The notes beneath the pieces were generated by a model, which did not search any database, was not told the DNA's origin, and was given only the letters and a program-made list of their open reading frames with translations. A stretch of DNA of 13,651 nt from a virus. Lineage: Duplodnaviria; Heunggongvirae; Uroviricota; Caudoviricetes. Positions 1-13,102 of this stretch are shown piece after piece. The number at the start of each line of letters is the position of its first letter. Positions within the stretch are counted from its first letter, which is position 1. A program made the position numbers and the translations under genes. The stretch lies in the IMG/VR virus record IMGVR_UViG_2654587685_000021, one strand, 5' to 3'.

Positions 1-366
1 ATGATTGATGTCTTAGGGCCGGAGAAACGCAGACGGCGTACCACACAGGAAAAGATCGCAATTGTTCAGCAGAGCTTTGAACCGGGGATGACGGTCTCCC
101 TCGTTGCCCGGCAACATGGTGTAGCAGCCAGCCAGTTATTTCTCTGGCGTAAGCAATACCAGGAAGGAAGTCTTACTGCTGTCGCCGCCGGAGAACAGGT
201 TGTTCCTGCCTCTGAACTTGCTGCCGCCATGAAGCAGATTAAAGAACTCCAGCGCCTGCTCGGCAAGAAAACGATGGAAAATGAACTCCTCAAAGAAGCC
301 GTTGAATATGGACGGGCAAAAAAGTGGATAGCGCACGCGCCCTTATTGCCCGGGGATGGGGAGTAA
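1..366 (+). CDS. insC: IS2 transposase OrfA (InsC), helix-turn-helix DNA-binding part
   Basis: 121-aa ORF ([40 protein letters not shown]...) recognised as IS2 InsC; ATG at 1. Confidence 0.85.
318..324 (+). promoter_or_regulatory. Programmed -1 ribosomal frameshift site A AAA AAG of IS2 (insC to insD)
   Basis: The heptamer AAAAAAG occupies 318-324 with AAA and AAG in the insC zero frame (..R A K K W..). The insD frame is exactly -1. This is the standard IS3-family arrangement. Confidence 0.7.
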
Positions 367-1229
367 GCTTAGTCAGCCGTTGTCTCCGGGTGTCGCGTGC
401 GCAGTTGCACGTCATTCTCAGACGAACCGATGACTGGATGGATGGCCGCCGCAGTCGTCACACTGATGATACGGATGTGCTTCTCCGTATACACCATGTT
501 ATCGGAGAGCTGCCCACGTATGGTTATCGTCGGGTATGGGCGCTGCTTCGCAGACAGGCAGAACTTGATGGTATGCCTGCGATCAATGCCAAACGTGTTT
601 ACCGGATCATGCGCCAGAATGCGCTGTTGCTTGAGCGAAAACCTGCTGTACCGCCATCGAAACGGGCACATACAGGCAGAGTGGCCGTGAAAGAAAGCAA
701 TCAGCGATGGTGCTCTGACGGGTTCGAGTTCTGCTGTGATAACGGAGAGAGACTGCGTGTCACGTTCGCGCTGGACTGCTGTGATCGTGAGGCACTGCAC
801 TGGGCGGTCACTACCGGCGGCTTCAACAGTGAAACAGTACAGGACGTCATGCTGGGAGCGGTGGAACGCCGCTTCGGCAACGATCTTCCGTCGTCTCCAG
901 TGGAGTGGCTGACGGATAATGGTTCATGCTACCGGGCTAATGAAACACGCCAGTTCGCCCGGATGTTGGGACTTGAACCGAAGAACACGGCGGTGCGGAG
1001 TCCGGAGAGTAACGGAATAGCAGAGAGCTTCGTGAAAACGATAAAGCGTGACTACATCAGTATCATGCCCAAACCAGACGGGTTAACGGCAGCAAAGAAC
1101 CTTGCAGAGGCGTTCGAGCATTATAACGAATGGCATCCGCATAGTGCGCTGGGTTATCGCTCGCCACGGGAATATCTGCGGCAGCAGGCTTGTAATGGGT
1201 TAAGTGATAACAGATGTCTGGAAATATAG
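324..1229 (+). CDS. insD: IS2 transposase OrfB (InsD), DDE catalytic domain; normally made as an InsCD fusion by -1 frameshifting
   Basis: 301-aa ORF in the -1 frame relative to insC, overlapping its 3' end; recognised as IS2 InsD. The listed start at 324 is a GTG; the functional product is expected to be the fusion. Confidence 0.85.
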
Positions 1230-1240
1230 GGGCAAATCCA

Positions 1241-1614
1241 AAGACCATCGGGGTAAAACGGTTTATGACGTGGCATCAGGGGACTCGTTATTTATTTCTG
1301 AACTCGGTCCATTACCGGAAAATGTTACCTGGTTGTCGCCGTATGGAGAGTATCAGAAGTGGAACGGCACATCCTGGGTGAAAGATGCAGAAGCAGAAAA
1401 ACTGTTTCGGATAAGGGAGGCGGAAGAAACAAAAAACAGCCTGATGCAGGTAGCCAGCGAGCATATTGCGCCACTTCAGGATGCCGTAGATTTGGATATT
1501 GCAACGGAGGAAGAGGCATCGTTACTGGCTGCATGGAAGACATACCGGGTATTGTTGAATCGTGTTAATACAGCGGTAGCAGCGGATGTTGAGTGGCCAG
1601 TCGCCCCACAATAA
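1241..1614 (+). pseudogene. Tail fibre assembly protein (Tfa / P2 gpG-like), 3' fragment; the 5' part is displaced by the IS2 insertion
   Basis: The translation after the IS2 end (..[64 protein letters not shown]...[13 protein letters not shown]...) matches the C-terminal two thirds of E. coli prophage Tfa proteins as I recall them. The listed ORF start at 1204 is inside IS2 and is an artefact. Confidence 0.75.
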
Positions 1615-1620
1615 AGAGAA

Positions 1621-1650
1621 AAAGCCATCGATTGAAATATAGATGGCTTT
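1621..1650. terminator. Stem-loop between the convergent tfa and acetyltransferase genes, possible bidirectional terminator
   Basis: AAAGCCATC (1621-1629) pairs with GATGGCTTT (1642-1650), a perfect 9-bp stem around a 12-nt loop with flanking A/T runs. It lies between the tfa stop (1612-1614) and the acetyltransferase stop (1658-1660). Confidence 0.4.
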
Positions 1651-1657
1651 ATGTACT

Positions 1658-2215
1658 CTATTTATACAATACAACACCGCTCTTTTTAGTTATATATGTG
1701 CAGTTCGATGGTATATCTTTATTTATAAAAGACATTGCACCTATTTTTACATTATCCCCAATTTTACGTGATAATCCAATGATGCAACAATTAGCTCCGA
1801 TATCAACGTTACTACCAATTTTTACTCTTGAACCAGGCATGTCACCATCTATCTGTCCAATGGTAGTATTCTGTCGTAACACCAGATTTTCACCAGCATC
1901 AACAGCAAAATGAACAACAATTCCAGCATGATGGGGAATTGTTAACCCTTTTCCAATATTTGCGCCCAATCCAATTTCACAACCAAATTTGTTAATTATT
2001 TTACTGTTTAACTTTTTGGCTGCTTTCTTATGTAATTTATTACCATTAATATACATTTCGTTAGCCAACCGCCACCAGAAAAGGAAATTCCGGTTACGCT
2101 GTTTTTTCTCTCTTAAAAGCCTCCAGATATCCATACGTTTCCGCCGAATTACTTCATATTTCCAGAAGTTTTTTAAATTAGTAGAGTCCCCAAATAAAAC
2201 AAAGTGAATTGCCAT
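1658..2215 (-). CDS. Hexapeptide-repeat acyltransferase, CysE/WcaB-like (serine or polysaccharide O-acetyltransferase family); AT-rich cargo gene
   Basis: The translation has the ...WWRLANEMYINGNKLHKKAAKKL... helix followed by a hexapeptide-repeat core (GCEIGLGANIGKGLTIPHHAGIVVHFAVDAGENLVLRQNTTIGQ...VKIGSNVDIGANCCIIG) like CysE and WcaB. The start is uncertain: ATG at 2215 or GTG at 2263 (the ORF-track start), neither with a good Shine-Dalgarno. The region is visibly AT-rich compared with the flanking tail genes. Confidence 0.65.
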   Translation of the reverse strand: MAIHFVLFGDSTNLKNFWKYEVIRRKRMDIWRLLREKKQRNRNFLFWWRLANEMYINGNKLHKKAAKKLNSKIINKFGCEIGLGANIGKGLTIPHHAGIVVHFAVDAGENLVLRQNTTIGQIDGDMPGSRVKIGSNVDIGANCCIIGLSRKIGDNVKIGAMSFINKDIPSNCTYITKKSGVVLYK

Positions 2216-2386
2216 TAAGTAAGACAGCACGATAATCTCCTTAATTATTATTTCAGACCACACATATTATAAGGTTAAGAGATTATAAAATCCTGTTGTT
2301 TGTTATTCAAAAACAATTTTCTGAGAAGGACATACAACAGCAAGTCGCCAGTCACCTTCATCAGGAAATTGGCGACATACGTTAAA

Positions 2387-2881
2387 TCAGAGCAGCCCCT
2401 TAACTGAGCTGGTCGCGCTATTAAGGGATGATGTCACCTTATCTTTGAAGCCGGACAACATATCGCTGAACGATGAGGATTGCAGGCGCTCCCGCAAATC
2501 CTCATCACAGCGTTCAAGAGTCAGTGAAAATTCTATCTTTTTCGCCTTACCGTAGCGATCAAACTCGGAGCGGGTCGTATTCGTTTCGGTCAGGACATAC
2601 ATGCCGTAAATCTGCCCGACGCCATCAATCAGAGGCCAGGGCCGTCCTGTATACGCCTGCGTGGTCAGCAGAGACAGCGACACTTCGCCACCTGTAATTT
2701 CAGGATAAAGCACACCAGAAAGAACGATGCGATCATCACCTGCACCGATATACTGCCAGCTTGCTGAACGGTTAACGCGTTCATTTTTCACATGCCGCCA
2801 GCTTTTGTTTTGCTGTAACTGCTGATGCGGCAGCGTGCGCAGCTCAAAAACAAACATGCCATAGATCATCATCATGGCCAT
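2387..2881 (-). CDS. U: Phage tail protein gpU (P2 U-like)
   Basis: 164-aa ORF directly after the tape-measure gene, in the position and size expected for gpU. The start probably lies among the MAMMM methionines: GAGGAG sits about 8 nt before the third Met at 2875. Confidence 0.75.
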   Translation of the reverse strand: MAMMMIYGMFVFELRTLPHQQLQQNKSWRHVKNERVNRSASWQYIGAGDDRIVLSGVLYPEITGGEVSLSLLTTQAYTGRPWPLIDGVGQIYGMYVLTETNTTRSEFDRYGKAKKIEFSLTLERCDEDLRERLQSSSFSDMLSGFKDKVTSSLNSATSSVKGLL

Positions 2882-2887
2882 GACTCC

Positions 2888-5704
2888 TCAATCTTTATCG
2901 TAAAAACTGCCACGCCCGGCACGGGCGCGCCGTTCCATTTCTGCCCTGACCATTTCACCGACCAGTTTCGCCAGTTCGCGGGGATTCTGCGTAACAACGT
3001 TATGCAGATGAACATGAATTTCACCGCCAAATCTGGAGACAGCAGGCTCCCGATTACGGGAAGCTGCAGGAACTGATGCCACTGGCGATCGTATGGCCTC
3101 CGCCACCGGGCGGGAGCTGGCCGCAACAACAGGGACCAGCGCCGGAGGCAGCGGAGCCGGGACTACGGGTGTGATATTAATTGCGGGGGCAGGCTTACTG
3201 ACCTGCGCAATCTTCCGCTCCTGCCACTCCCCACGAACAGCAAGTGCGCGGGGCAGGTTCTTAAAGACAATATCGCCAGGGCCAATGCGTTTTTTCGTCT
3301 CATCAACCAGCTTACCTGTGTTATCAGCAATTTTGCTGAGTCTGCGTAGCGTCCCGGTATTGCTGTCTGTGAGCGGTTTGTTGTCTTTGGGTTTATCACC
3401 TCCGGTGCCATTGCCATTTTCCACAGGCTTCGGCGGATTGATTTTCGCCAGGTCCCCCTGAAGTAAGGCAACCTTATCCTGAAGAATGGCCGCACGCTGT
3501 GCGTCTTCGATTTTCTTGCGCGCCCTTTCCGCTTCATCCGGAAGGACGCCAAGTTTTTCAAGTATCCACGCCAGCGTATCCAGTAGCATTTTTGCAGGTG
3601 TCAGAACAAGTTGTAACGCACCGCCAAGAACGTTACCGAATATCTCGCCAGCACTGGTACATTTATCCAGCGTTTCCTTGCTGGACTCCATCGGTGACAG
3701 CAGCGATTTAAACCAGTTAAACACCTGGCTGATCCCGCTTCCGATTGCGTCAAAAACAGGGCCAAACCGTTCAAAGGTTTCACGCAACGGGTTCAGCCTT
3801 TCCATAATCCCGCTGAACACCCCGGCAAAAAATGCCCTGATGGGATCCCAGTATTTCCAGATAAGGACGGCAGCTCCGGCAAGCGCAGCCACGATAAGAC
3901 CAACCGGACTGAACAGCGCCCCGATAGCGCCTCCCAGTAAAGAAACGGAACCCGTCACCATTCCCCATAGTGCTGGCAGGACCCTGACAGCATTCATTGA
4001 TCCGGTCAGGAGAGAAAAACCAAGACGCAGTTTTGCCAGCGGACCAGCAAGCACACCAATAGCCAGCGACAACGAGCCAACCGTTGCAGTCATTGCCAGC
4101 AACGCACCGCCTGCTATCAGTAGCTGGCGCGTCAGTGCCGGATGGGCCTGCGCCAGCGCCGTCACCCTTGATACCACCCGCGTGAGCCACTGCGTGACAG
4201 AACGCAGCGGACCGTCAATCAGATCTGCAATGCGGATGCGCAACCCTTCCCATGCACTGCCGAGTGATTTCAGATCGCCGTCAAGGTTGTTGGCCATAAC
4301 CTTTGCTGTGCGTTCAGCCTCACCGCGCGCGCCTTCAAGTTCTTTTCTCAGTTTGGGTAAGGAACCGTCACCCACTGCATCAACGAGCGCCATAAACGAT
4401 GTGAAAGCCTCTTCTCCGGCAATGTCCTTAAAGAACGATACCCGGTCAACTTCCCCGTATTTGCGGGTGGCTTTATAAAGGTCGGCCAGCACATCCTCCA
4501 TCGGGCGCATTTTACCCCCGGCATCCGAGACGGACACGCCCAGCTCTTTCAGAGCTTCTGCCGCCGCCTTTGGCGGTGATGCCAGACGAGCCAGGCTGGC
4601 ACGCATTGCCGTCCCGGCATCACTCCCTCTGATGCCCATATTCGCCAGCACACCAGCCATCGCTGCGGCCTGCTCCAGCGATATTCCCAGCTTACCCGCC
4701 ACCGGACCTGCATATTTCATGGTTTCGCCCAGTGCGCGAAGGTCAGTGTTGGTACGGGTAAACGCTGCGGTGAGTGTGTCACCGACCCGGTCCATCTGGT
4801 CAGCAGAAAGGCCGAACTGCGTCAGGATATTTGAGCCAATATCTGCCGTCTCGCCGAGATCCATACCGCCAGCCGTTGCCATGCTCAGCACTCCGGGAAG
4901 CGCAGCCTGAATGGCCTGCGGTGTGAAGCCTGCCATTGCAAGAAATGCCTGCCCACTGGCGGCATCGCCTGCGGTGAACTGCGTTTCAGAGCCAAGTTTT
5001 AACGCCTGCTCACGCAGCGCCTTAAACTGCGGGCTGTTCTGGTCGATTCGCGTCAGCGCCTGAACGCGGGACATCTCTTTGCCGAACCCGATCGCGGGCT
5101 GCAAAAAACGCCCGGCAGCATAGCCGCCCGCCGCTGCCGCACCAATTGCCAGCGCACCACCTGTTTTCAGTTTTCCCGCGGTTTCCTGCGCGCGCGAATA
5201 CCACTCACGCGCCCGCGTTACACGCGCAAGCGCCTGCCGTTCGCGTTCAAGCTGGTTGTTGTACTGTTCGGTGCGTCTGATGGCCTGCTGGATGGTGTTA
5301 TCGCTGCCTGTCAGGGAAATGCCGTGGCGTTTCAGCTCTCCGCCAAGCTCCCGCATTTTCTGAATTTCCCGTGTGCGCGATTCATTCAGGCGTTCAAGCC
5401 GGGTGCTTAACTGCTGCATCAGCTTTTGTTGTTTTTCGCTGAGCACTGTACCCGTGCGTTGTAACTGATTAAGGGCGTTAAGCTGGCGTCGTGCTTTCAC
5501 GATACCCGCATCCGCTTTACTGACAGCGTCGCGGGCGCGCTCAAATGAACGAGCCTGACGCTCGAGATTTTTAATCGCCCCCTGCGTTCGCTGGATGGAG
5601 TCACCAAACTGCCCCATCAGGCGGCGGGCGTTTTCGGCAGGCCGGGTCAGCCTGTCAACGGCGCTGAAAGCGACCCGGATATCAAGAGTCTTCATTGTCT
5701 GCAT
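2888..5704 (-). CDS. T: Phage tail tape measure protein gpT (P2 T-like)
   Basis: Very long ORF with a coiled-coil, Arg/Gln/Glu-rich N-terminal part, Gly/Ala-rich hydrophobic central segments and a Pro-rich C-terminus, sitting between E/E' and U. The ORF is open to 5731, but a start at MQTMKTLDIRVAF (5704 or 5695) fits the E' stop at 5682 better; the exact start is uncertain. Confidence 0.85.
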   Translation of the reverse strand: MQTMKTLDIRVAFSAVDRLTRPAENARRLMGQFGDSIQRTQGAIKNLERQARSFERARDAVSKADAGIVKARRQLNALNQLQRTGTVLSEKQQKLMQQLSTRLERLNESRTREIQKMRELGGELKRHGISLTGSDNTIQQAIRRTEQYNNQLERERQALARVTRAREWYSRAQETAGKLKTGGALAIGAAAAGGYAAGRFLQPAIGFGKEMSRVQALTRIDQNSPQFKALREQALKLGSETQFTAGDAASGQAFLAMAGFTPQAIQAALPGVLSMATAGGMDLGETADIGSNILTQFGLSADQMDRVGDTLTAAFTRTNTDLRALGETMKYAGPVAGKLGISLEQAAAMAGVLANMGIRGSDAGTAMRASLARLASPPKAAAEALKELGVSVSDAGGKMRPMEDVLADLYKATRKYGEVDRVSFFKDIAGEEAFTSFMALVDAVGDGSLPKLRKELEGARGEAERTAKVMANNLDGDLKSLGSAWEGLRIRIADLIDGPLRSVTQWLTRVVSRVTALAQAHPALTRQLLIAGGALLAMTATVGSLSLAIGVLAGPLAKLRLGFSLLTGSMNAVRVLPALWGMVTGSVSLLGGAIGALFSPVGLIVAALAGAAVLIWKYWDPIRAFFAGVFSGIMERLNPLRETFERFGPVFDAIGSGISQVFNWFKSLLSPMESSKETLDKCTSAGEIFGNVLGGALQLVLTPAKMLLDTLAWILEKLGVLPDEAERARKKIEDAQRAAILQDKVALLQGDLAKINPPKPVENGNGTGGDKPKDNKPLTDSNTGTLRRLSKIADNTGKLVDETKKRIGPGDIVFKNLPRALAVRGEWQERKIAQVSKPAPAINITPVVPAPLPPALVPVVAASSRPVAEAIRSPVASVPAASRNREPAVSRFGGEIHVHLHNVVTQNPRELAKLVGEMVRAEMERRARAGRGSFYDKD

Positions 5705-5900
5705 TCCCGCTGCGAAGTGCCGCCCGCTCACGCCAGCTAACCACTTCGCCGGGCGTCATCATGAAGATTTCGGCGGGCGACCAGTTAAAAATAACGGCAA
5801 TATCTGCCACAAAGTCTTCTATGTGCTCAAAGCACACAACCGTGATCAGGCTTCCGTCGCCTGTTCGTTCTTCCCGCCAGAGTCCGCACCGCTCAAAAAA
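5682..5900 (-). CDS. E': E' extension of the tail chaperone, made only as the gpE+E' fusion by -1 frameshifting
   Basis: The E' frame is -1 relative to E. It is closed upstream by TGA at 5933-5931 and open from the slip site to the stop at 5682-5684. It overlaps the 3' end of E, as in P2 E/E'. Confidence 0.7.
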   Translation of the reverse strand, partial: FFERCGLWREERTGDGSLITVVCFEHIEDFVADIAVIFNWSPAEIFMMTPGEVVSWRERAALRSGNADNEDS

Positions 5901-6211
5901 TTTACGGCAACCACACATAACTGAATAAAGTCACGGGATGCCATTTTTTTGATCGTCACTTCATCCAGTCGCGGTGATGTCACGCGTGACAGCAGCGTAA
6001 ACATGGATTCCGCTTTCAGATTCAGCACATCAGACAGCGACAAATCTCGCAGAGATCCAGCCTGCTCAATAGCCCCGGTGATCTCCACATACGTGATTTT
6101 TTCGCCGCCTCGCTCAATTGGTTGGGTAAGTTTTACACCACGCTCACTGGTTTCTTTCACAGTGTCAGCAACTACCGTGTTTTCGGTATCGATGTTTTTC
6201 GTCTCTTTCAT
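5846..6211 (-). CDS. E: Phage tail assembly chaperone gpE (P2 E-like)
   Basis: 121-aa acidic protein between the tube and tape-measure genes. AAGGAG lies 7 nt before the ATG at 6211. It contains the frameshift site near its 3' end. Confidence 0.8.
   Translation of the reverse strand: MKETKNIDTENTVVADTVKETSERGVKLTQPIERGGEKITYVEITGAIEQAGSLRDLSLSDVLNLKAESMFTLLSRVTSPRLDEVTIKKMASRDFIQLCVVAVNFLSGADSGGKNEQATEA
5894..5900 (-). promoter_or_regulatory. Programmed -1 frameshift slippery heptamer T TTT TTG (E to E+E')
   Basis: The minus strand reads AAT TTT TTG AGC in the E frame (..V N F L S..). The heptamer TTTTTTG is the slip sequence I recall for the P2 E/E' frameshift, and the -1 frame continues into the 5682..5918 ORF. 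Confidence 0.75.
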
Positions 6212-6265
6212 CAGGAAACTCCTTTCAGTCAGAGGCGACGCACTGCGCCGCCTGCATATTACTTA

Positions 6266-6778
6266 TCAGCCAAGCCCGAGCGCGGAACGGATGCGATCGG
6301 GCACAATGTCCTTGCCGTCCTTCCGGTAAATGAAGTTCAGCAGGTCAATCTCCCACAACGGGCGATCGTTAACACTCAGCTTGTAGTAGGTGTTTTTAAT
6401 GGCGTAAGTGTGTGATGTGGCTTCGCCCTGTTTGGCTTCCCCCATATCAATTTCCGTCACACGTCCGCGCATTTCGACTTCATACAGGTCGCTTTCTGCA
6501 TCGGTGTAATATTCACCCGCAAAACGCAGCAGCGTGCCGTCAATCGTGCCGCCATACTTAAGGAACAGCTCACGAACTGCGCCCCCCATGACAAAGCTCG
6601 CATCAAGCGCGGAGTCGTCCAGACCGAGATCAATACTTACCGCACCCATCATGCCACCACCCCGGTAGCTGTCGGTTTTGCGCGTCAGCTTAGGCAGAGT
6701 GACGGACGTCACCTTACCCACTTCGTTTTCACCATCCACAAACAGCGTAAAAAAGCGAAGATGTTTTGGTACAGCCAT
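6266..6778 (-). CDS. FII: Phage major tail tube protein (P2 FII-like)
   Basis: 170-aa ORF immediately after the sheath gene; its ATG overlaps the sheath stop (TGATG on the minus strand). Size and position match gpFII. Confidence 0.85.
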   Translation of the reverse strand: MAVPKHLRFFTLFVDGENEVGKVTSVTLPKLTRKTDSYRGGGMMGAVSIDLGLDDSALDASFVMGGAVRELFLKYGGTIDGTLLRFAGEYYTDAESDLYEVEMRGRVTEIDMGEAKQGEATSHTYAIKNTYYKLSVNDRPLWEIDLLNFIYRKDGKDIVPDRIRSALGLG

Positions 6779-7962
6779 CAGGCACCTCCCAGCACCGCAA
6801 ATGCGGGTTCAAAGTATTCATCAGTAAACGTCTGGTAAAGCTCCATGTCTTCCAGTGGCGGAACGGGCGTATATTTGTAGCGAATACGCACACGCCCCTG
6901 ACGTAAATCCGTGGTGCTGTTATCCACCACGTCATACCAGCACTCCGCGCCAATCAGTTTCCCGGCAGTAACCAGCGAATCCAGTTTTGCCCTGATGGCA
7001 CTGATAACATCCTTCACGTTCGCAGGCGTCAGTGGACTGTCGATGGTTTCAAACTGCGCTTCCGCAATTGAATCAGCCAGCACCTGTGCGGTTCGGGTAT
7101 ACACCTCAAAGATGTAGGCGTTCGTTTCCGGTGTGCGGTTGCCCCAGAAGCGGAACCCGTTGCGACGAATAATGGTCGTGATTTCTTTGTTGTTGAGGCT
7201 GTTGGCATCACTGTCTTCGGCCTGCAACGACCAGAAAACATGCCTGGACATCCCCAGCACATTTTTAACAGGAACGTTGGACAGCGATTTGTGCCAGCCC
7301 TGCTCATGGTCAATGTACGCACGAAGGCCGCACGCATAGGCAGGCGCGGGGAACGTTTCGTTTTTGCCACTTTTCGGGTTGTAGGCGATGAAGTCCGGCC
7401 ATAAGAGCATCACCTCACGTTCGTTGAATTTCTGGCGGTAGGTAATTGCCTCAGCCATCGTGTTACAGTCATGACATGAGGCATACACAAACGCGCGCAG
7501 TTTACCCGCAATCACGCACAGGGATTTTGTCACCGCCTCCGTGTCCAGCTCCGGCGCGGCCAGAATACGCGGACGGTATCCGATGCTTTCATCCTGCTCT
7601 GCAACAAGCAGCGCATACATCCCCGTATAGCTGCCGTCAGATTCAGAACCACCGATAACCAGTTGATCCTGCGTCTTACCGCCTTCTTCTTTGTGTTCAG
7701 CCACGCGAACGACGATCACTTTTGTGCTCACCTGGTCTGCAATAGCCTTAAGCGCACGATAAAGCGTCCCCGTAGTCCCGCATTTTCCCAGCACGTCATT
7801 GACGCGGGTCAGCAGTGTGGGCTTGTTCAGCGGGAACAGCTCCGCGTCCGCATCATCCGCCGTTGCCACGATACCGATAACACTGGAATCAACATCATTA
7901 ATCGCTGTTACCAGGTCGGTACTTTCCGTAACACGGGCACCATGAAAACGAGTTTCACTCAT
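6778..7962 (-). CDS. FI: Phage contractile tail sheath protein (P2 FI-like)
   Basis: 394-aa ORF with motifs I recall from P2 gpFI (..DADAE.FPLNKP.., LRAF.Y, WPDF, QGWHK.LSNV, RR.GFRFWGNRT, YTRTAQV, Y.YTPVPPLE). Confidence 0.9.
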   Translation of the reverse strand: MSETRFHGARVTESTDLVTAINDVDSSVIGIVATADDADAELFPLNKPTLLTRVNDVLGKCGTTGTLYRALKAIADQVSTKVIVVRVAEHKEEGGKTQDQLVIGGSESDGSYTGMYALLVAEQDESIGYRPRILAAPELDTEAVTKSLCVIAGKLRAFVYASCHDCNTMAEAITYRQKFNEREVMLLWPDFIAYNPKSGKNETFPAPAYACGLRAYIDHEQGWHKSLSNVPVKNVLGMSRHVFWSLQAEDSDANSLNNKEITTIIRRNGFRFWGNRTPETNAYIFEVYTRTAQVLADSIAEAQFETIDSPLTPANVKDVISAIRAKLDSLVTAGKLIGAECWYDVVDNSTTDLRQGRVRIRYKYTPVPPLEDMELYQTFTDEYFEPAFAVLGGA

Positions 7963-8119
7963 AGCTTCAGCCCCTTGTATCCGTTAAATGATTCGGCAAC
8001 AATCATCACCCACCACGCGCGTAATCTCACCCCTGCGCCGTTCTCCCGCCACGGCGACAACAAAAAGCAGTAACCCCCTATGCACGCACATGCGACCATG
8101 CCGCACAGGGAGGGAACAG

Positions 8120-9220
8120 ATGACCGATACCACCATGCAATTGCTCAGTCAGAGCACAGACCCCGTGAAAATGCCGGATTTTGATATTCTCGCGGAGGGG
8201 GAAACACTGTCCGGCGTGGCAGAGCGCCTGATGAGCCTGTCACTGACCGACAACCGGGGATTTGAAGCGGACCTGCTCACCATCACGCTGGATGATGCGG
8301 ATGGTCAGTTGCAGCTACCGCCACGGGGCGCGCGCCTGACGGTTCTCATTGGCTGGAAAGGAGAACCGCTGACAGAAAAAGGCACTTACATTGTTGATGA
8401 AATCGCTCACGAAGGACCGCCGGACAGGCTGACTGTTTCAGCCAGAAGCGCAGATTTTCGGGATGAATTTAACGTTAAACGTGAGGTGTCCTGGCATGAT
8501 GTGACCGTTGAGCGCGTGGTATCCGCCATCGCTCATCGGTACGGTCTGAAACCACAAATCAGCGAAATGCTGATGGATATTGAAATCGACCACGCCGACC
8601 AGACCGAAGAAAGCGACATGTCCTTCCTTACGCGCATGGCGGAAATGCTGGGCGCAATCACTACGGTAAAAAGCAGTAATCTGTTATTCATCATGCCAGG
8701 CGGTGGCGTGAACGCACAGGGCCAGCCGTTGCCATCGTTCGCCATCACGCGCAGCAGTGGCGATCGCCATCAGTTCCGCATTGCTGACCGCGAAGCGTAT
8801 ACGGGGGTACGTGCTTACTGGCTTGATCTTAATTACGGGAAAAAGAAAAAAGTCAGCGTGAAACGCCGCAAACCGAAAAAGGAGAAAAGCAGCAGCCGTG
8901 AAGGTGACTATATGGAAGGTGCGGAAGGCAACGTGTTTGTGTTACGCAAGACTTATCAGAACGAGCAGGCAGCAAGACGTGCAGCGGCGGCAAAGTGGCA
9001 GCAGCTACAACGCGGAGCCGCATCATTCTCCATCACGCTGGCGCGTGGACGCGCAGAACTCTATCCCGAAATGCATGGCACGGTGACAGGCTTCAAAAGT
9101 GACATCGATAATCAGGACTGGATTATTGCAAAAGCCGAGCACACCATTGATAACAGCGGCTTTACCACACAGCTTGAGCTTGAAGCAAAAATCCCGGAAT
9201 GGATAGCAGAAACAGAATGA
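8120..9220 (+). CDS. D: Phage tail protein D (P2 gpD / late control gene D family)
   Basis: The translation from MTDTTMQLL... has the gpD-type blocks (LTITLDDADGQLQLPPRGARLTVLIGWKG, SARSADFR, SFLTRMAE, a KKKKVSVKRRKPKKEK basic stretch, FSITLARGRAELYPE, SGFTTQLELE). GGGAGGG lies 6 nt before the ATG at 8120. The ORF-track start at 7988 is an upstream extension with no support. Confidence 0.85.
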   Translation: MTDTTMQLLSQSTDPVKMPDFDILAEGETLSGVAERLMSLSLTDNRGFEADLLTITLDDADGQLQLPPRGARLTVLIGWKGEPLTEKGTYIVDEIAHEGPPDRLTVSARSADFRDEFNVKREVSWHDVTVERVVSAIAHRYGLKPQISEMLMDIEIDHADQTEESDMSFLTRMAEMLGAITTVKSSNLLFIMPGGGVNAQGQPLPSFAITRSSGDRHQFRIADREAYTGVRAYWLDLNYGKKKKVSVKRRKPKKEKSSSREGDYMEGAEGNVFVLRKTYQNEQAARRAAAAKWQQLQRGAASFSITLARGRAELYPEMHGTVTGFKSDIDNQDWIIAKAEHTIDNSGFTTQLELEAKIPEWIAETE

Positions 9221-9619
9221 GCAAATTAGATGTATTGACTCAAACCAGAACTGACACACTCACAGCACAGTGCCAGACCCAATCTGGCAGCCCGCTTTGT
9301 GCCTAGAGCAGGTGTTGCTTATGTAACAGTTAATCCACGGATAGTGGTCATGAATGCTGGTTGAAGTTGTATTGCCATGAGTGGTCAATTAGGGACTCAC
9401 TTATTATCGCGTGCTCACCATTGATGGGTAAGATCATGCATTTCGGCTACTGTACTTCGCGAATCCTCCGCACACAGGCAACACCTGATTTAAGAACAGA
9501 GGGAGATGATGACGCAAGGAAGATTTATTATCGTGCATGTGGCAGATGATCTTTTAGCTGCCGGAGTGATAAATTACACCTATTTTCGATAAGTGTTTTT
9601 GTTATAGAACATTAATTTC

Positions 9620-10759
9620 GTGGGAAACAATAAAGTGAAATTAGGAAGAAATGATAAGTGCTGGTGTAATTCAGGACTTAAGTATAAAAAGTGCCATCTT
9701 GGTCGAGATCGTGAAACTCCGGTATCCAAAGCCGAGGCACTGAAATTTTCAAAGTCTCTCTCGCAGAGAAAGGCATGTTATGCGCCAGCATCCATGCACG
9801 AAGATTGTGATAAACGCATCGTTCAGGCGCATACGATATCTAAGAGCAGTAGCCTTAAGGCGATCGCCGACTCCAGCAATCACGTCATGGGGGTGATAAT
9901 GAACTTAGCAAGCCTGATGAGAAACAACGGAAAATGGCTTCCCGAGAAGATCGGTATCAATCAGGCATCCACTTTTACAGGATTTTGTGCAGTTCATGAC
10001 AGAATCTTATTTTCATGCCTAGAGAACGAAAAATTTACAGGCACGGACGAGCAGTGCTTTGCCTTAATGTTTCGTTCATTGTCTAAAGAAATTTATGCCA
10101 AAGAAGGGGGAGTGCTATCTTCTGATTTTGCTAAAAATGCCGATAAAGGAAAGCTACAAGTTGAACAGTATTATATTCAGAAATTAATCGACCAGCACCA
10201 AAGTGGCTTAAATGCAGCAATAATTGAATTAAATAATCTTAAAACTAGCCTCGACCGCATCCTACTTAGCAGGCAATTTTCAGAAATTGAAAGTGTTATC
10301 TTCACTTTTGCAGAGCCTTTACCAATTGTAGTTTCGTCAATTCTTTCACCGGAGAGGGATTTCGATGGGACCAAAATTCAGGATTTGAGCGATCTTACAG
10401 TGTCGGCGGAACAAGTATGTTTCAATGCTTTTTCCTGCGGAGGTAAGGGATATGTTGTGTTCAGTTGGCTGAGAACTTCAACAATTATCAGACGTTTTAT
10501 ACGGACACTAATTAAGATCCCAGCTAACAGGATGTTCAATACCCTTCTGTATTTTTTCTTCACAAAGGCCGAAAATACATATTCATCCCCTGAGTGGTGG
10601 GACAGGCTCAGTGATAAACAGCGAGAGAATATCGGCAACATGATTATGTCAGGGGTTGAATTTTTTGGCATACCTACATCACAGGTTGATCATTCCGTTG
10701 ATTATAACGCCGCTGCACTTGAAGAGATAACATGCAGCAACAACGAAATTTGCAGCTGA
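9620..10759 (+). CDS. Hypothetical 379-aa protein with an N-terminal SEC-C-type zinc-binding motif; AT-rich cargo gene between D and ogr (candidate anti-phage or accessory function)
   Basis: Residues 14-26, CWCNSGLKYKKCH, fit the SecA C-terminal SEC-C consensus (CxCxSGxKYKxC[H/C]). The rest has no domain I can name. The start is GTG at 9620; the frame opens at 9608 after TAG, and the first in-frame ATG would delete the motif. No clear Shine-Dalgarno. AT-rich relative to the tail genes. Confidence 0.7.
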   Translation: MGNNKVKLGRNDKCWCNSGLKYKKCHLGRDRETPVSKAEALKFSKSLSQRKACYAPASMHEDCDKRIVQAHTISKSSSLKAIADSSNHVMGVIMNLASLMRNNGKWLPEKIGINQASTFTGFCAVHDRILFSCLENEKFTGTDEQCFALMFRSLSKEIYAKEGGVLSSDFAKNADKGKLQVEQYYIQKLIDQHQSGLNAAIIELNNLKTSLDRILLSRQFSEIESVIFTFAEPLPIVVSSILSPERDFDGTKIQDLSDLTVSAEQVCFNAFSCGGKGYVVFSWLRTSTIIRRFIRTLIKIPANRMFNTLLYFFFTKAENTYSSPEWWDRLSDKQRENIGNMIMSGVEFFGIPTSQVDHSVDYNAAALEEITCSNNEICS

Positions 10760-11048
10760 ATGTTTACATGCTGTTAGAAAAAGCGGGCTGAACAATCATT
10801 TCGGGATTGTAACAGATAAGATGGCACTGCCCGCTTGCTTCCCGATATGCACCTCAGCCAATAAACTTATGTAAGCAACCGATTTCCATTTATGCGGAGG
10901 TTATCAAAGTTGTTGGAGTTGCGAACTTCCGCTCTTCGCACAAAGCGTACCGCTAGGTTTGATTGTATTCTGGCTGCGCAAACTGTCAGTTGGAGTCTGA
11001 GCTATTACAACTTAGAATAGCGGCAGCACCACGTTAAGGGAGGTCGCT

Positions 11049-11309
11049 ATGTTCCGTTGTCCGCTTTGTGGCGCATCTGCCCGAATCCGCACCAGTCGTC
11101 CGGAAAACGATTCAAACACTGTGCGGCAAAAGTATTACCAGTGTAACAACCTGGAATGCGGCGTATGCTTCTCAACACTGGAAGCTTTCCATAAATTCAC
11201 ATCAAAACACGCCTCCGGCGTTCACTCTTCGGAAGGTATCCCGTGGCATGAGCTGCCAGCTTCACACAGGGGAAACAATCAGATGAGTTTGCCTTTACCT
11301 CAGAATTAA
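11049..11309 (+). CDS. ogr: Ogr/Delta-family zinc-finger late transcription activator
   Basis: MFRCPLCGASARIRTSR....YYQCNNLECGVCF has the CxxC-(22)-CxxxxC arrangement and the N-terminal consensus I recall for P2 Ogr (MFHCPLC..A.ARTSR...YHQCQN..C). AGGGAGG lies 5 nt before the ATG. It sits at the prophage end as in P2. Confidence 0.85.
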   Translation: MFRCPLCGASARIRTSRPENDSNTVRQKYYQCNNLECGVCFSTLEAFHKFTSKHASGVHSSEGIPWHELPASHRGNNQMSLPLPQN

Positions 11310-11499
11310 CAGGCAGAATTGCCGGAGTAACAAAAAAACGATAGATTACCCGCGGGTGCCTTTCGGCTGATGGTCGGAGGAATACCCGAAGGCCGGATGT
11401 GGAAAGGCCCCGGAAAACATTTCTGTTTAACCGAGGCCCTAACATATCTACCTTAAGCAAGTGATAGGTTAGCGCCTCTCCAACAAAGGAGCAAGCGCT

Positions 11500-11640
11500 A
11501 TGTCGCAAAAATCGCTTACAGCCATCACGTTCTGCGTGACGGTAATCCTCATCATCTGGATGCTACACGGTTCGCTGTGTGAAATACGGATGAGCTTCTG
11601 GGGAGCGGAGTTTGCGGCGTTCTTACAGTGTAAGCAGTAA
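11500..11640 (+). CDS. Hok/Gef-family type I toxin (46 aa), absent from the ORF track
   Basis: ATG 11500 to TAA 11638-11640 encodes MSQKSLTAITFCVTVILIIWMLHGSLCEIRMSFWGAEFAAFLQCKQ: one N-terminal transmembrane helix followed by the Hok-family SLCE(I/L) motif and AAF(L/M). AAAGGA lies upstream; an in-frame TAG at 11470-11472 closes the frame. Confidence 0.7.
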   Translation: MSQKSLTAITFCVTVILIIWMLHGSLCEIRMSFWGAEFAAFLQCKQ

Positions 11641-11728
11641 GGAAACCGCGACGGGGGAGCAATCCCCCGTCAATCGGTTGCTAAGGTTGGCTGAAGTGGC
11701 ACCCTATCTCACAGACATGAACAACAAA

Positions 11729-11760
11729 CCCGCAGCGTAAGAACTGCGGGTTTTCTTTTT
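11729..11760 (+). terminator. Rho-independent terminator downstream of the hok-like gene
   Basis: CCCGCAG (11729-11735), an 8-nt loop, CTGCGGG (11744-11750), then TTTTCTTTTT. It is preceded by a second GC hairpin, GACGGGGGA-GCAA-TCCCCCGTC, which could be the 3' fold-back element of a hok-type mRNA. Confidence 0.6.
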
Positions 11761-11828
11761 GGAACAATCACTAGCTAGTGTACCGTTAACGGCACATAAT
11801 GCTCGCACAACAAACCTGTTAAAAGAGA

Positions 11829-12110
11829 TTACTCAGCATTCTCCTGCTTCCATTGCCGGATCATTTCATCGGTAACATCACCCTCATAACATACCACGTC
11901 ATACCCTCCATTACGGCTATATGCACTGCGTCCACCACATCTACTACCATTCCTTGCATGATTATAAGGACACGCACAATTGCCTGGATAAGATTCAATG
12001 GATTCTTTAATTATTTCTTTTTTGATCTGAGCATCAGACTTTCCTGTTGCTGCATATCCACTAAAAGATACTAAACAAAGGCAGATTGCCATTAATAAAC
12101 CACATCGCAT
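11829..12110 (-). CDS. Small secreted Cys-rich hypothetical protein (about 93 aa with signal peptide)
   Basis: The ORF is open to 12224, but the signal-peptide-like start MRCGLLMAICLCLVSFSGYAA|TGK begins at the ATG at 12110. The mature part has 6 Cys (..YPGNCACPYNHARNGSRCGGRSAY..VVCYEGD..). AT-rich. No family assignment from memory. Confidence 0.5.
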   Translation of the reverse strand: MRCGLLMAICLCLVSFSGYAATGKSDAQIKKEIIKESIESYPGNCACPYNHARNGSRCGGRSAYSRNGGYDVVCYEGDVTDEMIRQWKQENAE

Positions 12111-12412
12111 ACCGATACACTCTATTACTAACCAATCATAGCCCACATCATAAAATCGAGATGAGGAGTACAATACCTTTAACAAGAAGGTGTCATAACG
12201 ATAATATGTCGTGCAATTCATCAAAAAAAAGATCTATATCAAAGAGATAGAACTCTTATCAGCGCTTCAGACATCGGCATTCGAGGCAGCAGAAAAACAG
12301 TAAATCTGACGAATTTGCCTTTTCCCAAGATGTTGTCAGATTAAAAAGATAGATTAGCGCAGGTACCTGTTGGTGGATTGCAGGAGGAAAAATGAAGTCG
12401 AGTGAAAAAATC

Positions 12413-12474
12413 CCAGAAAAATTTTTGTTTAACAGAGGTCCTGGTTCACTATGCGAAATACGGAGGAGCTGCAG
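12413..12474 (+). pseudogene. hok-locus remnant: degenerate second copy with an internal deletion of about 127 bp
   Basis: 12413-12442 matches 11410-11440 (about 26 of 30) and 12443-12474 matches 11568-11600 inside hok (about 26 of 32), with the intervening hok start and transmembrane coding part missing. A 34-aa ORF at 12392-12496 with an AGGAGG upstream retains the GSLCEIR motif but has no transmembrane helix. Confidence 0.5.
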
Positions 12475-12580
12475 AAGAATTCTGCTTCATCCTTAGAGTT
12501 TAAACAGCACGTGCACTACCATTGTTTCTGCATATCGCCACACCATCGCCACTCTACCGCCATTGCACAAAATACAAATA

Positions 12581-12607
12581 CGAAAAAACCACCCGAAGGT
12601 GGTTTCA
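12581..12607 (-). terminator. Rho-independent terminator of the glyW-cysT-leuZ tRNA operon
   Basis: The minus strand reads AAACCACC-TTCG-GGTGGTTT followed by a T run, about 40 nt downstream of the leuZ 3' end. Confidence 0.7.
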
Positions 12608-12648
12608 CGACACTGCTTATTGCTTTGATTTTATTCTTATCTTTCCCA

Positions 12649-12735
12649 TGGTACCCGGAGCGGGACTTGAACCCGCACAGCGCGAACGCCGAGGGATTTT
12701 AAATCCCTTGTGTCTACCGATTCCACCATCCGGGC
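12649..12735 (-). tRNA. leuZ: tRNA-Leu (anticodon UAA)
   Basis: The reverse complement reads GCCCGGATGGTGGAATCGGTAGACACAAGGGATTTAAAATCCCTCGGCGTTCGCGCTGTGCGGGTTCAAGTCCCGCTCCGGGTACCA: 87 nt, long variable arm, encoded CCA end. Confidence 0.9.
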
Positions 12736-12747
12736 TCGGGAAGAAAG

Positions 12748-12821
12748 TGGAGGCGCGTTCCGGAGTCGAACCGGACTAGACGGATTTGCAATCCGCTACA
12801 TAACCGCTTTGTTAACGCGCC
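12748..12821 (-). tRNA. cysT: tRNA-Cys (anticodon GCA)
   Basis: The reverse complement reads GGCGCGTTAACAAAGCGGTTATGTAGCGGATTGCAAATCCGTCTAGTCCGGTTCGACTCCGGAACGCGCCTCCA: 74 nt, anticodon loop UUGCAAA. Confidence 0.9.
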
Positions 12822-12875
12822 AAATCCTTCAGGCCTTTCAGCCAGACATCCGCTTGAGGCCGATGTCTTTTAAAC

Positions 12876-12951
<76 letters not shown>

Positions 12952-13024
12952 ATTCATCAAGCAATCAGTTAATCACTTGATTTTATTATCGTCTGGCAAT
13001 CAGTGCCGCCGTTCGATGCGTTGC

Positions 13025-13052
13025 ATTCTACTTACCTGGCGCGATGAGTCAA
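13025..13052 (-). promoter_or_regulatory. Probable sigma70 promoter of the glyW-cysT-leuZ operon
   Basis: The minus strand has TTGACT (13052-13047), a 16-nt spacer and TAGAAT (13030-13025), followed by a GC-rich discriminator and preceded by an A/T-rich UP-like tract. It lies about 65 nt upstream of the glyW 5' end. Confidence 0.5.
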
Positions 13053-13102
13053 CGATATTTTTCACCACTTTTGATCGTTTGCTGAAAATTGCGCCGAAAC
13101 GA

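Follow-up and report, generated by a model that had tools for sequence, protein, structure and literature searches.

Sf6 Oac, D3 Oac and the GtrC/OafA-type AT3 proteins are integral-membrane prophage enzymes that O-acetylate the LPS O-antigen and block re-adsorption. In T5, the llp gene adjoins the gene for pb5, and lambdoid cor is similar; the lipoproteins they encode bind the protein receptor FhuA and block it. P2 carries Z/fun, a superinfection-exclusion gene that blocks T5, in the slot between the tail-fibre assembly gene G and the FI block, where it is transcribed against the late genes. To our knowledge, the known seroconverting acetyltransferases are either membrane AT3 proteins, which modify O-antigen, or NeuO, which modifies capsule. 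NeuO, from prophage CUS-3 of E. coli K1, is a polysialic-acid O-acetyltransferase, and acetylation of the capsule raises survival against K1 phage (PMC3046976, PMC13001214).

The gene described here lies in a P2-like E. coli prophage at leuZ/pgsA, within a 13,651-nucleotide stretch of DNA (the window). It encodes a predicted acetyltransferase for which NeuO is the best functional precedent: both appear to be soluble, left-handed beta-helix O-acetyltransferases of the acetyl-CoA type carried as prophage cargo, and the surface glycan modified by NeuO is itself a phage receptor. However, NeuO has a long, funnel-shaped beta-helix without a helical N-domain of the serine acetyltransferase type, and it was not among the best 60 of the 71 PDB sequences matched by the profile of the window protein's family (E ≤ 1e-5). 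NeuO is also phase-variable through 5' heptanucleotide repeats (poly-psi) that the window gene does not have; a scan of positions 1500-2500 for NeuO-like phase variation found no tandem repeats. The substrate of NeuO is known, whereas we infer that of the window enzyme. The Sf6 and D3 Oac-type enzymes are likewise prophage cargo with the same proposed logic of LPS O-acetylation, but the window enzyme is predicted to be a soluble beta-helix acting at the cytoplasmic face, probably on the core. As with llp and cor, a receptor-masking function would be kept beside the cognate receptor-binding gene, although those genes do not encode glycan-modifying enzymes. P2 Z/fun resembles the window gene in position and has no sequence relationship to it, and P2 is absent from the 13 phage records matched by the acetyltransferase in tblastn at 1e-10.

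The acetyltransferase gene and its setting

The features of the locus are collected in Table 1. The gene is 573 nt long, as in the RefSeq annotation, and its homologues start at the position corresponding to GTG 2230; the Shine-Dalgarno sequence was read directly from the DNA. The longest open reading frame over the gene runs from 1658 to 2263 on the minus strand (201 aa). Because the start is the GTG at 2230, the interval singled out in the first-pass annotation, 1615-2386, comprises the gene and both of its intergenic flanks.

Table 1. Positions of features at the acetyltransferase locus (window coordinates)
Feature	Position	Strand	Details
IS2, partial at window edge	1-1240	+	InsC/InsD ORFs 1-366 and 324-1229; inserted into tfa
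tfa/gpG 3' remnant (tail-fibre assembly chaperone)	1241-1614	+	first 205 nt gone
Hairpin between convergent tfa and acetyltransferase	1621-1650		9-bp stem
Acetyltransferase, 190 aa	1658-2230	-	GTG start; predicted N-terminal helical domain of ~85 aa, then left-handed beta-helix
Shine-Dalgarno AAGGAG	2237-2242	-	6 nt 5' of GTG
Putative sigma-70-like promoter, TTGAAT-17 nt-TATAAT	2282-2310	-	10/12 matches; ~50 nt 5' of start codon
Predicted hairpin just 3' of gpU stop codon	2344-2376	-	dG -25.4 kcal/mol for 96-nt segment, z -3.63
gpU tail gene	2387-2881	-	last gene of inverted FI-FII-E-T-U block; upstream neighbour of acetyltransferase

The low GC content described in the first-pass annotation was borne out. 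GC is 0.33-0.36 over 1650-2400 versus 0.51-0.60 in the flanks, and the coding sequence itself has a GC of 0.346 and a GC3 of 0.30, compared with 0.505 and 0.57 for gpU and 0.573 and 0.58 for gpT. These values support the view that the gene is compositionally foreign and horizontally acquired. It is present in 530 of 5426 complete E. coli genomes (about 1 in 10) and is enriched in the STEC lineages O157 (including O157:H7), O111 and O104 (the O104:H4 outbreak lineage). Across 34 alleles, dN/dS was 0.04-0.26 in 29 of the 30 scorable comparisons, showing that the gene is under purifying selection, and a decaying passenger gene was rejected on these low values. The gene is intact in the window although tfa is disrupted by IS2, and it is also intact in another prophage broken by IS30. 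Accessory distribution, foreign composition and purifying selection together support its designation as prophage cargo (a "moron") and not a tail component, as had been claimed on first reading. The product is no truncated fragment; its 190 residues are intact and include the conserved catalytic His and acidic residue.

The tfa remnant is 99.85% identical to positions 13627-14000 of the E2865 prophage (L001), which fall inside that prophage's annotated tfa (13422-14000), and homology to this intact prophage starts at window position 1241. A full-length tfa homologue matches Pfam Caudo_TAP at 1e-39. IS2 was recognised from the translations of its ORFs and from the IS2 annotation beneath the matches to the junction sequence. 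None of the 5426 complete E. coli genomes searched contains the exact IS2-tfa junction, and IS2 is therefore a strain-specific insertion into tfa. The first-pass annotation had seen in the nearby IS2 a sign of an insertion hot spot; the element is indeed there, but a strain-specific junction is uninformative on that point, and the hot-spot status of the region rests on other evidence. The assignment of gpU and of the inverted tail block, whose U end lies beside the acetyltransferase as first described, comes from the same annotated prophage (99.85% identical). Where relatives keep the canonical order of P2 genes (L156-159 and L170), the acetyltransferase is found exactly between tfa (G) and FI in the opposite orientation, whereas inversion of the FI-U block in the window prophage brings gpU to the flank of the slot. 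This gene order supports the earlier placement of the acetyltransferase in a cargo slot equivalent to that of Z/fun, a match that is exact in the canonical-order relatives (L156-159).

The hairpin said to separate the gene from the convergent tfa was recovered with folding energies of -14.3 (plus strand) and -16.6 kcal/mol (minus strand) and z-scores of -4.05 and -3.88, and none of 200 shuffles folded equally well. By energy prediction it looks like a bidirectional terminator. The 43-nt spacer that contains it is identical in P2-like, P1-like and other phage backbones, and the gap 3' of the acetyltransferase measures 43 nt in nearly all close homologues. On the 5' side, the putative promoter is a consensus match only, one of five sigma-70-like sites found in the region where 3.2 would be expected. 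A homologue with 70% identity (L154) has this motif equally far upstream, and in P1-like copies the motif reads TTGACA-18-TAAAAT. The hairpin beyond the gpU stop codon has no strong U-tract and may end the tail operon, thereby setting the acetyltransferase apart. All of these promoter and terminator assignments come from consensus matching or energy prediction, and the late tail operon may read through into the acetyltransferase. Some CP-933T proteins are reported in an O157 proteome supplement, and the acetyltransferase was not among the entries found there.

Protein family and active site

The first-pass annotation described a left-handed beta-helix acetyltransferase related to serine and polysaccharide acetyltransferases, and comparisons with Hexapep, NCBIfam, PDB and Foldseek agree with one another on this point. 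The match to Pfam Hexapep (PF00132) falls just below the 27-bit cutoff (E = 3.8e-5, 23.6 bits), and most homologues carry a precomputed PF00132 match. In the NCBIfam profile search that had been proposed for choosing a subfamily, the best scores went to EpsC (75 bits), CysE (61) and WcaB (54), followed by NeuD (30), LacA (28) and Mac (21), while no Vat/xenobiotic acetyltransferase family matched the window protein. The EpsC-type family NF041874 is the top-scoring curated family, yet its 75.2 bits amount to half of the cutoff of 150; cutoffs were also missed for CysE (61.5 bits vs 210.65 for TIGR01172, 36.7 vs 397 for NF008349) and for WcaB (53.3 bits vs 194.65 for TIGR04016, 54.2 vs 196 for NF007564). 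Judged by these profiles, the protein is in the CysE/EpsC/WcaB branch, and not with NeuD, below every curated cutoff and in a family separate from the WcaB and EpsC families (53-75 bits against cutoffs of 150-196). A LacA/Mac or Vat/xenobiotic identity was rejected, as the corresponding scores were weak or absent. WcaB (colanic acid) and the EpsC-type proteins are, like the window protein, small hexapeptide enzymes resembling serine acetyltransferases, similar in length and with sugar acceptors, and together with CysE they are the best-scoring curated families; unlike them, the window gene lies in a prophage, outside any wca or eps operon. A full-length match to PHROG 2154, an entry of unknown function, had an E-value of 1.7e-87 (292.7 bits) and covers residues 24-201, numbered on the 201-aa reading frame, against profile positions 3-181 of 185.

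Serine acetyltransferases in the PDB were matched at E = 1e-12 with the single sequence and at 3.8e-25 with the family profile, which also matched hexapeptide enzymes in the PDB. An AlphaFold model built on an alignment of 102 sequences reached a pLDDT of 96.7 and superseded a run with 32 sequences, in which the beta-helix had a pLDDT of 55-73 and Foldseek scores were weak. The best 50 Foldseek matches of the 102-sequence model were all serine acetyltransferases, with a TM-score of about 0.7 and a probability of 1.00. In this model, short beta-strands recur every ~12-13 residues from residue 110. The beta-helix is predicted to begin near residue 90, and alignments to the solved enzymes start no earlier than residue ~110-140 of the latter. 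CysE enzymes (TIGR01172; PDB 1T3D, 6WYE and others) are the closest solved structures, and in them, as in the model, the beta-helix follows a helical N-domain.

The catalytic residues also align with those of CysE. H100, conserved in at least 90% of 102 homologues, corresponds to CysE H158, and the Glu of C-E-I (family motif C-[DE]-I) corresponds to CysE D143. The serine-binding residues of E. coli CysE, D157, R192 and H193, have no such counterparts: in the alignment to Y. pestis CysE a Pro stands at the D157 position and a gap at that of H193. Family members carry any of P/L/F/H/G/V/A/S in the D157 column, and conservation is likewise lacking in the R192-H193 columns, where the profile consensus reads 'ekkikiGd' opposite 'gdrHPKIGD'. 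The protein ends in ...SGVVLYK, without the CysK-binding tail ending in Ile, and it differs from CysE further in its shorter N-domain and in its location on a mobile element with no cys context. Because the CysE serine-binding residues are missing and the cutoffs are missed, the databases have probably misnamed it as a "serine acetyltransferase". The protein is better described as a soluble, probably trimeric, acetyl-CoA-dependent O-acetyltransferase, in which the serine pocket has probably been lost from a serine acetyltransferase architecture.

Published accounts mention the gene in passing. RefSeq and GenBank name it "serine O-acetyltransferase", the authors of the JL22 genome call it "sacF" and leave it unexplained (PMC9603915), and the phiNP paper says no more than that it is a "fitness" gene. 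A literature search, including searches by WP accession and Z-number, found no functional study of any member of the family.

An exchangeable cassette of fibre tip, chaperone and acetyltransferase

What the earlier reading had missed is the place of the gene in a larger mobile unit. A block of 1,800 bp is shared at 94.2% identity between the P2-like prophage (L001, 12809-14608) and the P1-like phage JL22, and it covers the ~204 codons at the 3' end of the fibre gene, tfa, and the acetyltransferase up to its start codon. With a third phage type, 1,902 bp are held in common at 88%, and here the block takes in the promoter region. On the left, these exchange blocks share an edge where the fibre tip starts. 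Even homologues with as little as 35-45% identity adjoin tfa or tail-fibre genes, and the arrangement recurs in six or more phage backbones, including P2-like phages of both gene orders, the P1 C-segment, a Salmonella Mu-like prophage, Proteus and Xenorhabdus myoviruses, Citrobacter phiNP and Hafnia yong2. The fibre C-termini found in these contexts are homologous (47-98% identity). These data show that the acetyltransferase gene is a physical part of an exchangeable fibre-tip and chaperone cassette that moves between unrelated phages, which to our reading is new here.

Identities of the acetyltransferase and Tfa co-vary (Mantel r = 0.81, p = 1e-4). Alleles of tfa at 90% identity or above occur in 589 records and the acetyltransferase in 575, while ~3,560 records have a tfa at 80-90% nucleotide identity and no acetyltransferase. 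In one lineage (L166-171) the gene is co-directional with fibre and tfa. Many homologues have no fibre nearby; they are orphan chromosomal genes, have integrase neighbours or are carried on an EAF-like plasmid. A scan of genome contigs returned mostly distant, generic hexapeptide enzymes, with L015-L028 as the only usable loci. Because the tail-fibre region is a general cargo hot spot, adjacency and co-divergence could reflect a shared recombination history and not a shared function.

A possible role in lysogenic conversion and its alternatives

Relatives of the acetyltransferase also occur among genes for LPS synthesis. In Leminorella, a homologue with 48% identity is part of the operon waaG-like-rfaP-waaB-waaI-rfaY-waaZ-[X], convergent with rfaL (in short waaY-waaZ-X-waaL, where X is the homologue), and all of its neighbours score above NCBIfam equivalog cutoffs. 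A waaZ homologue lies immediately upstream of the copy in Halomonas, and a Pseudomonas copy sits among WaaP-family kinase, GT2 and UDP-sugar genes. The acetyltransferase is paired with a GT25 gene in a Xenorhabdus prophage and with an HtrL/YibB-family gene in two viral contigs, and a Rosenbergiella copy adjoins an AT3+SGNH acyltransferase. Such LPS-locus examples number only a handful; the genomic associations of the family are with LPS and tail-fibre genes and never with cys genes.

The fibres of P1, P2 and Mu bind the LPS core. We propose that the acetyltransferase is a lysogenic-conversion O-acetyltransferase acting on an envelope glycan, probably an LPS core sugar recognised by the linked fibre; the substrate is read from gene neighbourhood, and we assign the proposal a probability of roughly one half. 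O-acetylation of a surface polysaccharide, for lysogenic conversion or receptor masking, had already been suggested on first reading and is supported as the probable function; the small-molecule substrate offered beside it found no support. Transcription from the gene's own putative promoter, against the late tail-fibre genes and with hairpins on both sides, would make expression in the lysogen possible. The enzyme would work on an envelope glycan still under assembly on the cytoplasmic side of the inner membrane, acetylating one of its hydroxyls; the likeliest acceptor is a sugar of the LPS core oligosaccharide. The gene is passed on and swapped in a single block with the receptor-binding fibre end and the chaperone, and for that reason acetylation is proposed to alter the receptor of the linked fibre type. 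Lysogens would as a result be shielded from any other phage with this fibre cassette, heteroimmune P1-, P2- and Mu-like phages among them, and fewer progeny would be wasted on debris and sibling cells. The analysis shows the fold, the catalytic residues, the missing serine-binding residues, the foreign composition, purifying selection, the cassette and the genomic associations; that the lysogen expresses the gene, what its product acetylates and that phages are excluded is what we infer.

A stronger and more tentative form of this proposal makes the enzyme the third part of a mobile host-range cassette, in which it would O-acetylate the very LPS-core epitope bound by the fibre tip and so render the lysogen of whichever phage acquires the cassette (P1-, P2-, Mu-like or other) invisible to all other phages, and possibly tailocins, equipped with it. 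Such an arrangement would resemble a toxin-immunity pair applied to adsorption. Carrier strains differ in O-antigen (O157, O111, O104), and because these antigens are unrelated an O-unit target is unlikely; the difference argues against an O-unit and is no proof of a core target. We know of no O-acetyl group reported on the R3 core of O157, and the de-O-acylation that is standard in structural work would strip O-acetyl from the LPS core. If the core is acetylated, this would be a new kind of lysogenic conversion and a hidden layer of LPS variation, with unnoticed core O-acetylation in O157:H7, O111 and O104:H4. Prediction of host range for phage therapy would be affected, as a fibre cassette would bring resistance to itself. 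In any event, about one in ten complete E. coli genomes carry a gene labelled as a cysteine-biosynthesis enzyme, and the label is almost certainly wrong.

The same class of enzyme could instead serve the bacterial host, with O-antigen, colanic acid, ECA or capsule acetylated for serum or immune evasion or for gut fitness and not for phage exclusion, and adjacency to the fibre would then be a mere effect of the cargo hot spot. We consider this possible but rather doubtful. The enrichment of the gene in STEC O157, O111 and O104 would fit, as would the several homologues away from fibres, the documented hot-spot nature of the slot, and the distant relative WcaB, which by its NCBIfam name acetylates colanic acid; acetylation by NeuO also alters neutrophil and serum killing (PMC13001214). 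However, a mere hot-spot effect accords poorly with an adjacency to tfa or fibre genes that holds to 35-45% identity in at least six phage backbones, with exchange blocks that begin together at the fibre tip and with the co-divergence of enzyme and Tfa, and the unrelated O-antigens of the carriers make a specific O-unit acceptor unlikely. An intracellular function against phages or competitors, by acetylation of a small molecule (an antibiotic or signalling nucleotide) or a protein, appears improbable. The gene is single-gene cargo with its own promoter-like site, and Z/fun, in the same slot of P2, blocks T5. Hot spots of P2-like phages are reservoirs of defence systems, although that study (Rousset 2022) concerns the other P2 hot spot and not the acetyltransferase slot (PMC9122126). 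In PADLOC-DB v2 no defence family matched the acetyltransferase at E ≤ 1, and the protein has no similarity to Vat/xenobiotic acetyltransferases and no conserved partner gene. Its nearest non-phage relatives lie in LPS or polysaccharide loci, and enzymes of the CysE/WcaB hexapeptide branch are known for acetylating hydroxyls on sugars or on small polar acceptors.

That the enzyme is after all a genuine serine O-acetyltransferase, an auxiliary metabolic gene raising the supply of O-acetylserine and cysteine, is very unlikely: the database name, the closest solved structures and the retained catalytic His and acidic residue would all suit it, but the CysE scores lie far under their cutoffs, the positions of D157, R192 and H193 are Pro, variable or absent, the N-terminal domain has ~85 aa versus ~140, the C-terminus (...VLYK) is not a CysK-binding tail ending in Ile, and gene associations are with LPS and fibres, never cys. 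We regard as equally far-fetched an enzyme directed at the phage itself, with the tail fibre or its chaperone as acetylation target, or required in some other way for the fibre to mature. Such a function would account for the tight linkage, with the gene strictly adjoining tfa or fibre genes in many phages and, in lineage L166-171, even reading in their direction. Against it, gene and fibre operon usually converge on a terminator-like hairpin, the composition of the gene is foreign, and most phages with homologous fibres and chaperones do without it (the ~3,560 records noted above). Moreover, the acetyltransferase has stayed intact in the window where tfa is destroyed, and its relatives extend to chromosomal LPS-core operons.

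Gene boundaries and enzyme class

The first-pass annotation had described an AT-rich hexapeptide acetyltransferase next to tfa (the tail-fibre assembly gene) and the tail block, and this description was essentially right. The GC content of the gene is 0.346 and its GC3 0.30, compared to 0.505 and 0.57 for gpU and 0.573 and 0.58 for gpT, and its composition is clearly foreign. The true start is the GTG codon within the longest open reading frame, because AAGGAG lies 6 nt upstream, homologues start at the same residue and the RefSeq product is 190 aa. The hairpins and the sigma-70-like site (Table), at the level of consensus only, suggest an independent transcription unit; a homologue with 70% identity has the same sigma-70-like motif, equally far from the gene.

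Coordinates of features in the window and in comparison loci (L-numbers)
Feature	Location	Strand	Remark
IS2	1-1240
Rfam IS009 (RF02111) match	1379-1577	+	full length, 192 bits; wholly within tfa coding remnant
Hairpin	1621-1650	both	between acetyltransferase and convergent tfa; 9-bp stem, z about -4
Acetyltransferase, longest ORF	1658-2263	-
Acetyltransferase, from GTG	1658-2230	-	190 aa
Sigma-70-like site	2310-2282		TTGAAT-17-TATAAT, 10/12 consensus match
Second hairpin	after gpU stop codon		folding prediction
FI-FII-E-T-U block	2387-7962	-
D	7988-9220	+
YecA-family gene	9620-10759	+	379 aa, GC 0.41; between gpD and ogr
Prophage end with ogr and Hok/Gef toxin gene	11049-11309; about 11500-11640; 12649-12951	+; +; -
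DUF6645 gene, E2865 prophage	L001 5943-7820		625 aa
Macro-domain gene, O157:H7 493/89	L002 12509-13411		300 aa, Pfam Macro E 8e-19
P0039, EPEC EAF-like plasmids	L008-L010 5001-5594		50%-identical homologue
waaZ and homologue, Leminorella grimontii	L016 5132-6519
waaZ and homologue, Halomonas sp.	L024 5013-6396
Methyltransferase, E. coli TF5 lambdoid prophage	L176 4435-5103		class I, SAM-dependent
Homologue and AT3 protein, Rosenbergiella	L190 3977-6540		divergent

The subfamily had been left to a profile search, in which curated EpsC (75 bits), CysE (61) and WcaB (54) profiles came out on top and NeuD (30), LacA (28) and Mac (21) lower, with no match to Vat; every score was far under the cutoff of its own family. 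In PHROGs the protein belongs to family 2154 (E 1.7e-87), listed as function unknown. The AlphaFold model, from a 102-sequence alignment (pLDDT 96.7), begins with five helices and continues as a beta-helix, its best 50 Foldseek matches were all serine acetyltransferases (TM about 0.7), and the family profile matched serine acetyltransferase structures at 3.8e-25. The catalytic histidine (H100, CysE H158) is kept in at least 90% of homologues, and the acidic partner (D/E, CysE D143) is conserved. The residues with which CysE holds serine are not retained, with Pro or varying residues in place of D157 and no conservation of the R192-H193 motif; the N-domain is short compared to that of CysE, and the CysK-binding tail is absent. 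These data argue strongly for an O-acetyltransferase dependent on acetyl-CoA, predicted to be active, and not for a serine acetyltransferase despite the database name. The gene is widely annotated, misleadingly, and uncharacterised.

The homologue P0039 comes from plasmids or plasmid-like contigs that also contain PsiA, EspF, IS66 elements and IpaB/EvcA fragments; a gene cluster resembling that of a type IV pilus (prepilin peptidase A24, SLT) lies close by. In the catalytic-His column P0039 has Arg (PRHSG vs PHHSG), and it may be inactive or may use the neighbouring His instead.

Linkage to the tail-fibre tip and tfa

The main new observation is a cassette of tail-fibre tip, tfa and acetyltransferase gene. 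The P2-like E2865 prophage and the P1-like phage JL22 have one 1,800-bp block in common (94.2% identity), which takes in roughly the last 204 codons of the fibre gene, tfa, a 43-nt spacer and the acetyltransferase gene up to its start codon. In a third type of phage the shared block is 1,902 bp long (88%); it has an identical left boundary and reaches into the promoter region. This shared block structure places the acetyltransferase inside the P1-like invertible C-segment, between two alternative fibre cassettes.

In the loci examined the gene is a neighbour of tfa or of a tail-fibre gene, and this extends to homologues with as little as 35-65% identity. Homologues lie beside tfa or fibre genes in a Salmonella Mu-like prophage, in Proteus and Xenorhabdus myoviruses, and in Citrobacter phiNP and Hafnia yong2; in one lineage (L166-171) the gene is co-directional with both. 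In canonical-order P2-like phages (L156-159, L170) it sits exactly between G, the P2 tfa, and FI, which is the Z/fun slot, and the earlier interpretation as non-tail cargo in such a slot was essentially borne out. The fibres in these settings have homologous C-termini (47-98% identity over 220 aa), and the identity of the acetyltransferase tracks that of Tfa across 14 lineages (Mantel r 0.81, p 1e-4). Alleles of tfa at least 90% identical to that of the window occur in 589 records and the acetyltransferase in 575; tfa at 80-90% identity occurs without it in about 3,560. Exceptions to the linkage are copies by integrases, at prophage ends, on the EAF-like plasmid and as chromosomal orphans. The linkage could be historical and not functional, since the region around the tail-fibre genes is a hot spot for cargo in general.

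In the TF5 prophage, a methyltransferase occupies the acetyltransferase's convergent place after tfa (tfa 88.8% identical in DNA), and this slot may generally be home to small modifying enzymes. Many O157-type cassettes (L002, L111-L114, L122, L126, L130-L135, L151 and L153) carry a genuine Macro-domain gene, which lies between tail fibre gene H and tfa. The Macro domain is an ADP-ribose binding or O-acetyl-ADP-ribose deacetylase fold.

Relatives beside LPS genes and the proposed target

Non-phage relatives, which the first-pass annotation had not covered, point to LPS. A 48%-identical homologue in Leminorella grimontii follows rfaP-waaB-waaI-rfaY-waaZ and faces rfaL, with neighbours above NCBIfam equivalog cutoffs, and in Halomonas a waaZ homologue is directly upstream. 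A waaZ (Kdo III transferase) homologue directly upstream is conserved between these two distant genera, a hint that the Kdo region of the inner core, or its surroundings, may be where the enzyme acts. A Pseudomonas copy lies amid a WaaP-family kinase, GT2 and UDP-sugar enzymes. In Rosenbergiella the homologue is beside a 645-aa Acyl_transf_3 (AT3) and SGNH protein, an OafA-like glycan O-acetyltransferase, so that two unlike acetyltransferase types are neighbours. A Xenorhabdus phage copy is paired with a GT25 glycosyltransferase beside the fibre gene, and two viral contigs pair a homologue with an HtrL/YibB-family gene.

The LPS core is the binding target of P1, P2 and Mu-type fibres. It is assembled on the cytoplasmic side of the inner membrane, where it would be within reach of a soluble enzyme that uses acetyl-CoA. 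Core O-acetylation would then mask the receptor to which the linked type of fibre binds. We propose this because of the LPS-linked relatives, the core-binding fibres, the cytoplasmic assembly of the core and the O-antigens of carrier strains, which are of unrelated types and argue against an O-unit target. Support for the small-molecule acceptor that the first-pass annotation had allowed was not found. We put an envelope glycan as target at a probability of roughly 0.65; the LPS core specifically falls somewhat short of even odds, and receptor masking tied to the cassette is more tentative still. These estimates are rough and not independent of one another. The enzyme fits a kind already represented by prophage-borne surface-glycan O-acetyltransferases, such as the beta-helix NeuO of prophage CUS-3, the precedent for this proposal, whose acetylation of the capsule raises survival against K1 phage (PMC3046976; PMC13001214). 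Its architecture and likely target set the enzyme apart from both NeuO and the AT3 seroconversion enzymes, as does its place in an exchangeable fibre-tip module.

Prophage setting, distribution and other cargo

The window covers the right arm of a P2-like prophage that is inserted next to pgsA and the genes for tRNA-Leu(taa), tRNA-Cys and tRNA-Gly; these tRNA genes, upstream of pgsA and abutting the prophage end, are likely the integration site. Window 1241-13651 is 99.85% identical to the annotated E. coli E2865 prophage, with the order V-W-J-I-H(fibre)-tfa, the opposite-facing acetyltransferase, U-T-E-FII-FI on the minus strand, D, the YecA-like gene, ogr and hok. Compared with the canonical P2 order, the FI-FII-E-T-U block is inverted, and D lies on the other strand. 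Through the IS2 insertion tfa has lost its first 205 nt, and the exact junction was absent from every complete E. coli genome searched (5426), so the insertion is strain-specific and is not evidence of the insertion hot spot it had been taken to mark. What is listed as the IS009 "RNA family" may be nothing more than a conserved part of the tfa coding region.

Acetyltransferase DNA was found in 530 of the 5426 genomes, O157:H7, O111 and O104:H4 among them. It occupies 534 places in chromosomes and 66 in plasmids of about 90-100 kb; the plasmid records examined were P1-like phage-plasmids. For 34 distinct alleles, comparison with that of E2865 gave dN/dS values of 0.04-0.26 in 29 of the 30 cases that could be scored; the remaining one, a near-identical allele, had 0.79. 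The gene is intact in prophages damaged elsewhere, by IS2 in the window and by IS30 in gpD.

The YecA-family protein has a SEC-C-like Cys motif at its N-terminus and only weak PADLOC matches (E1-E2/E2 models, residues 4-28); its position looks like a second cargo slot. The DUF6645 gene, which in E2865 is flanked by the lysis genes and the tail gene that follows them and is missing in the O157 version, looks like it occupies a further variable slot for cargo in prophages of this lineage.
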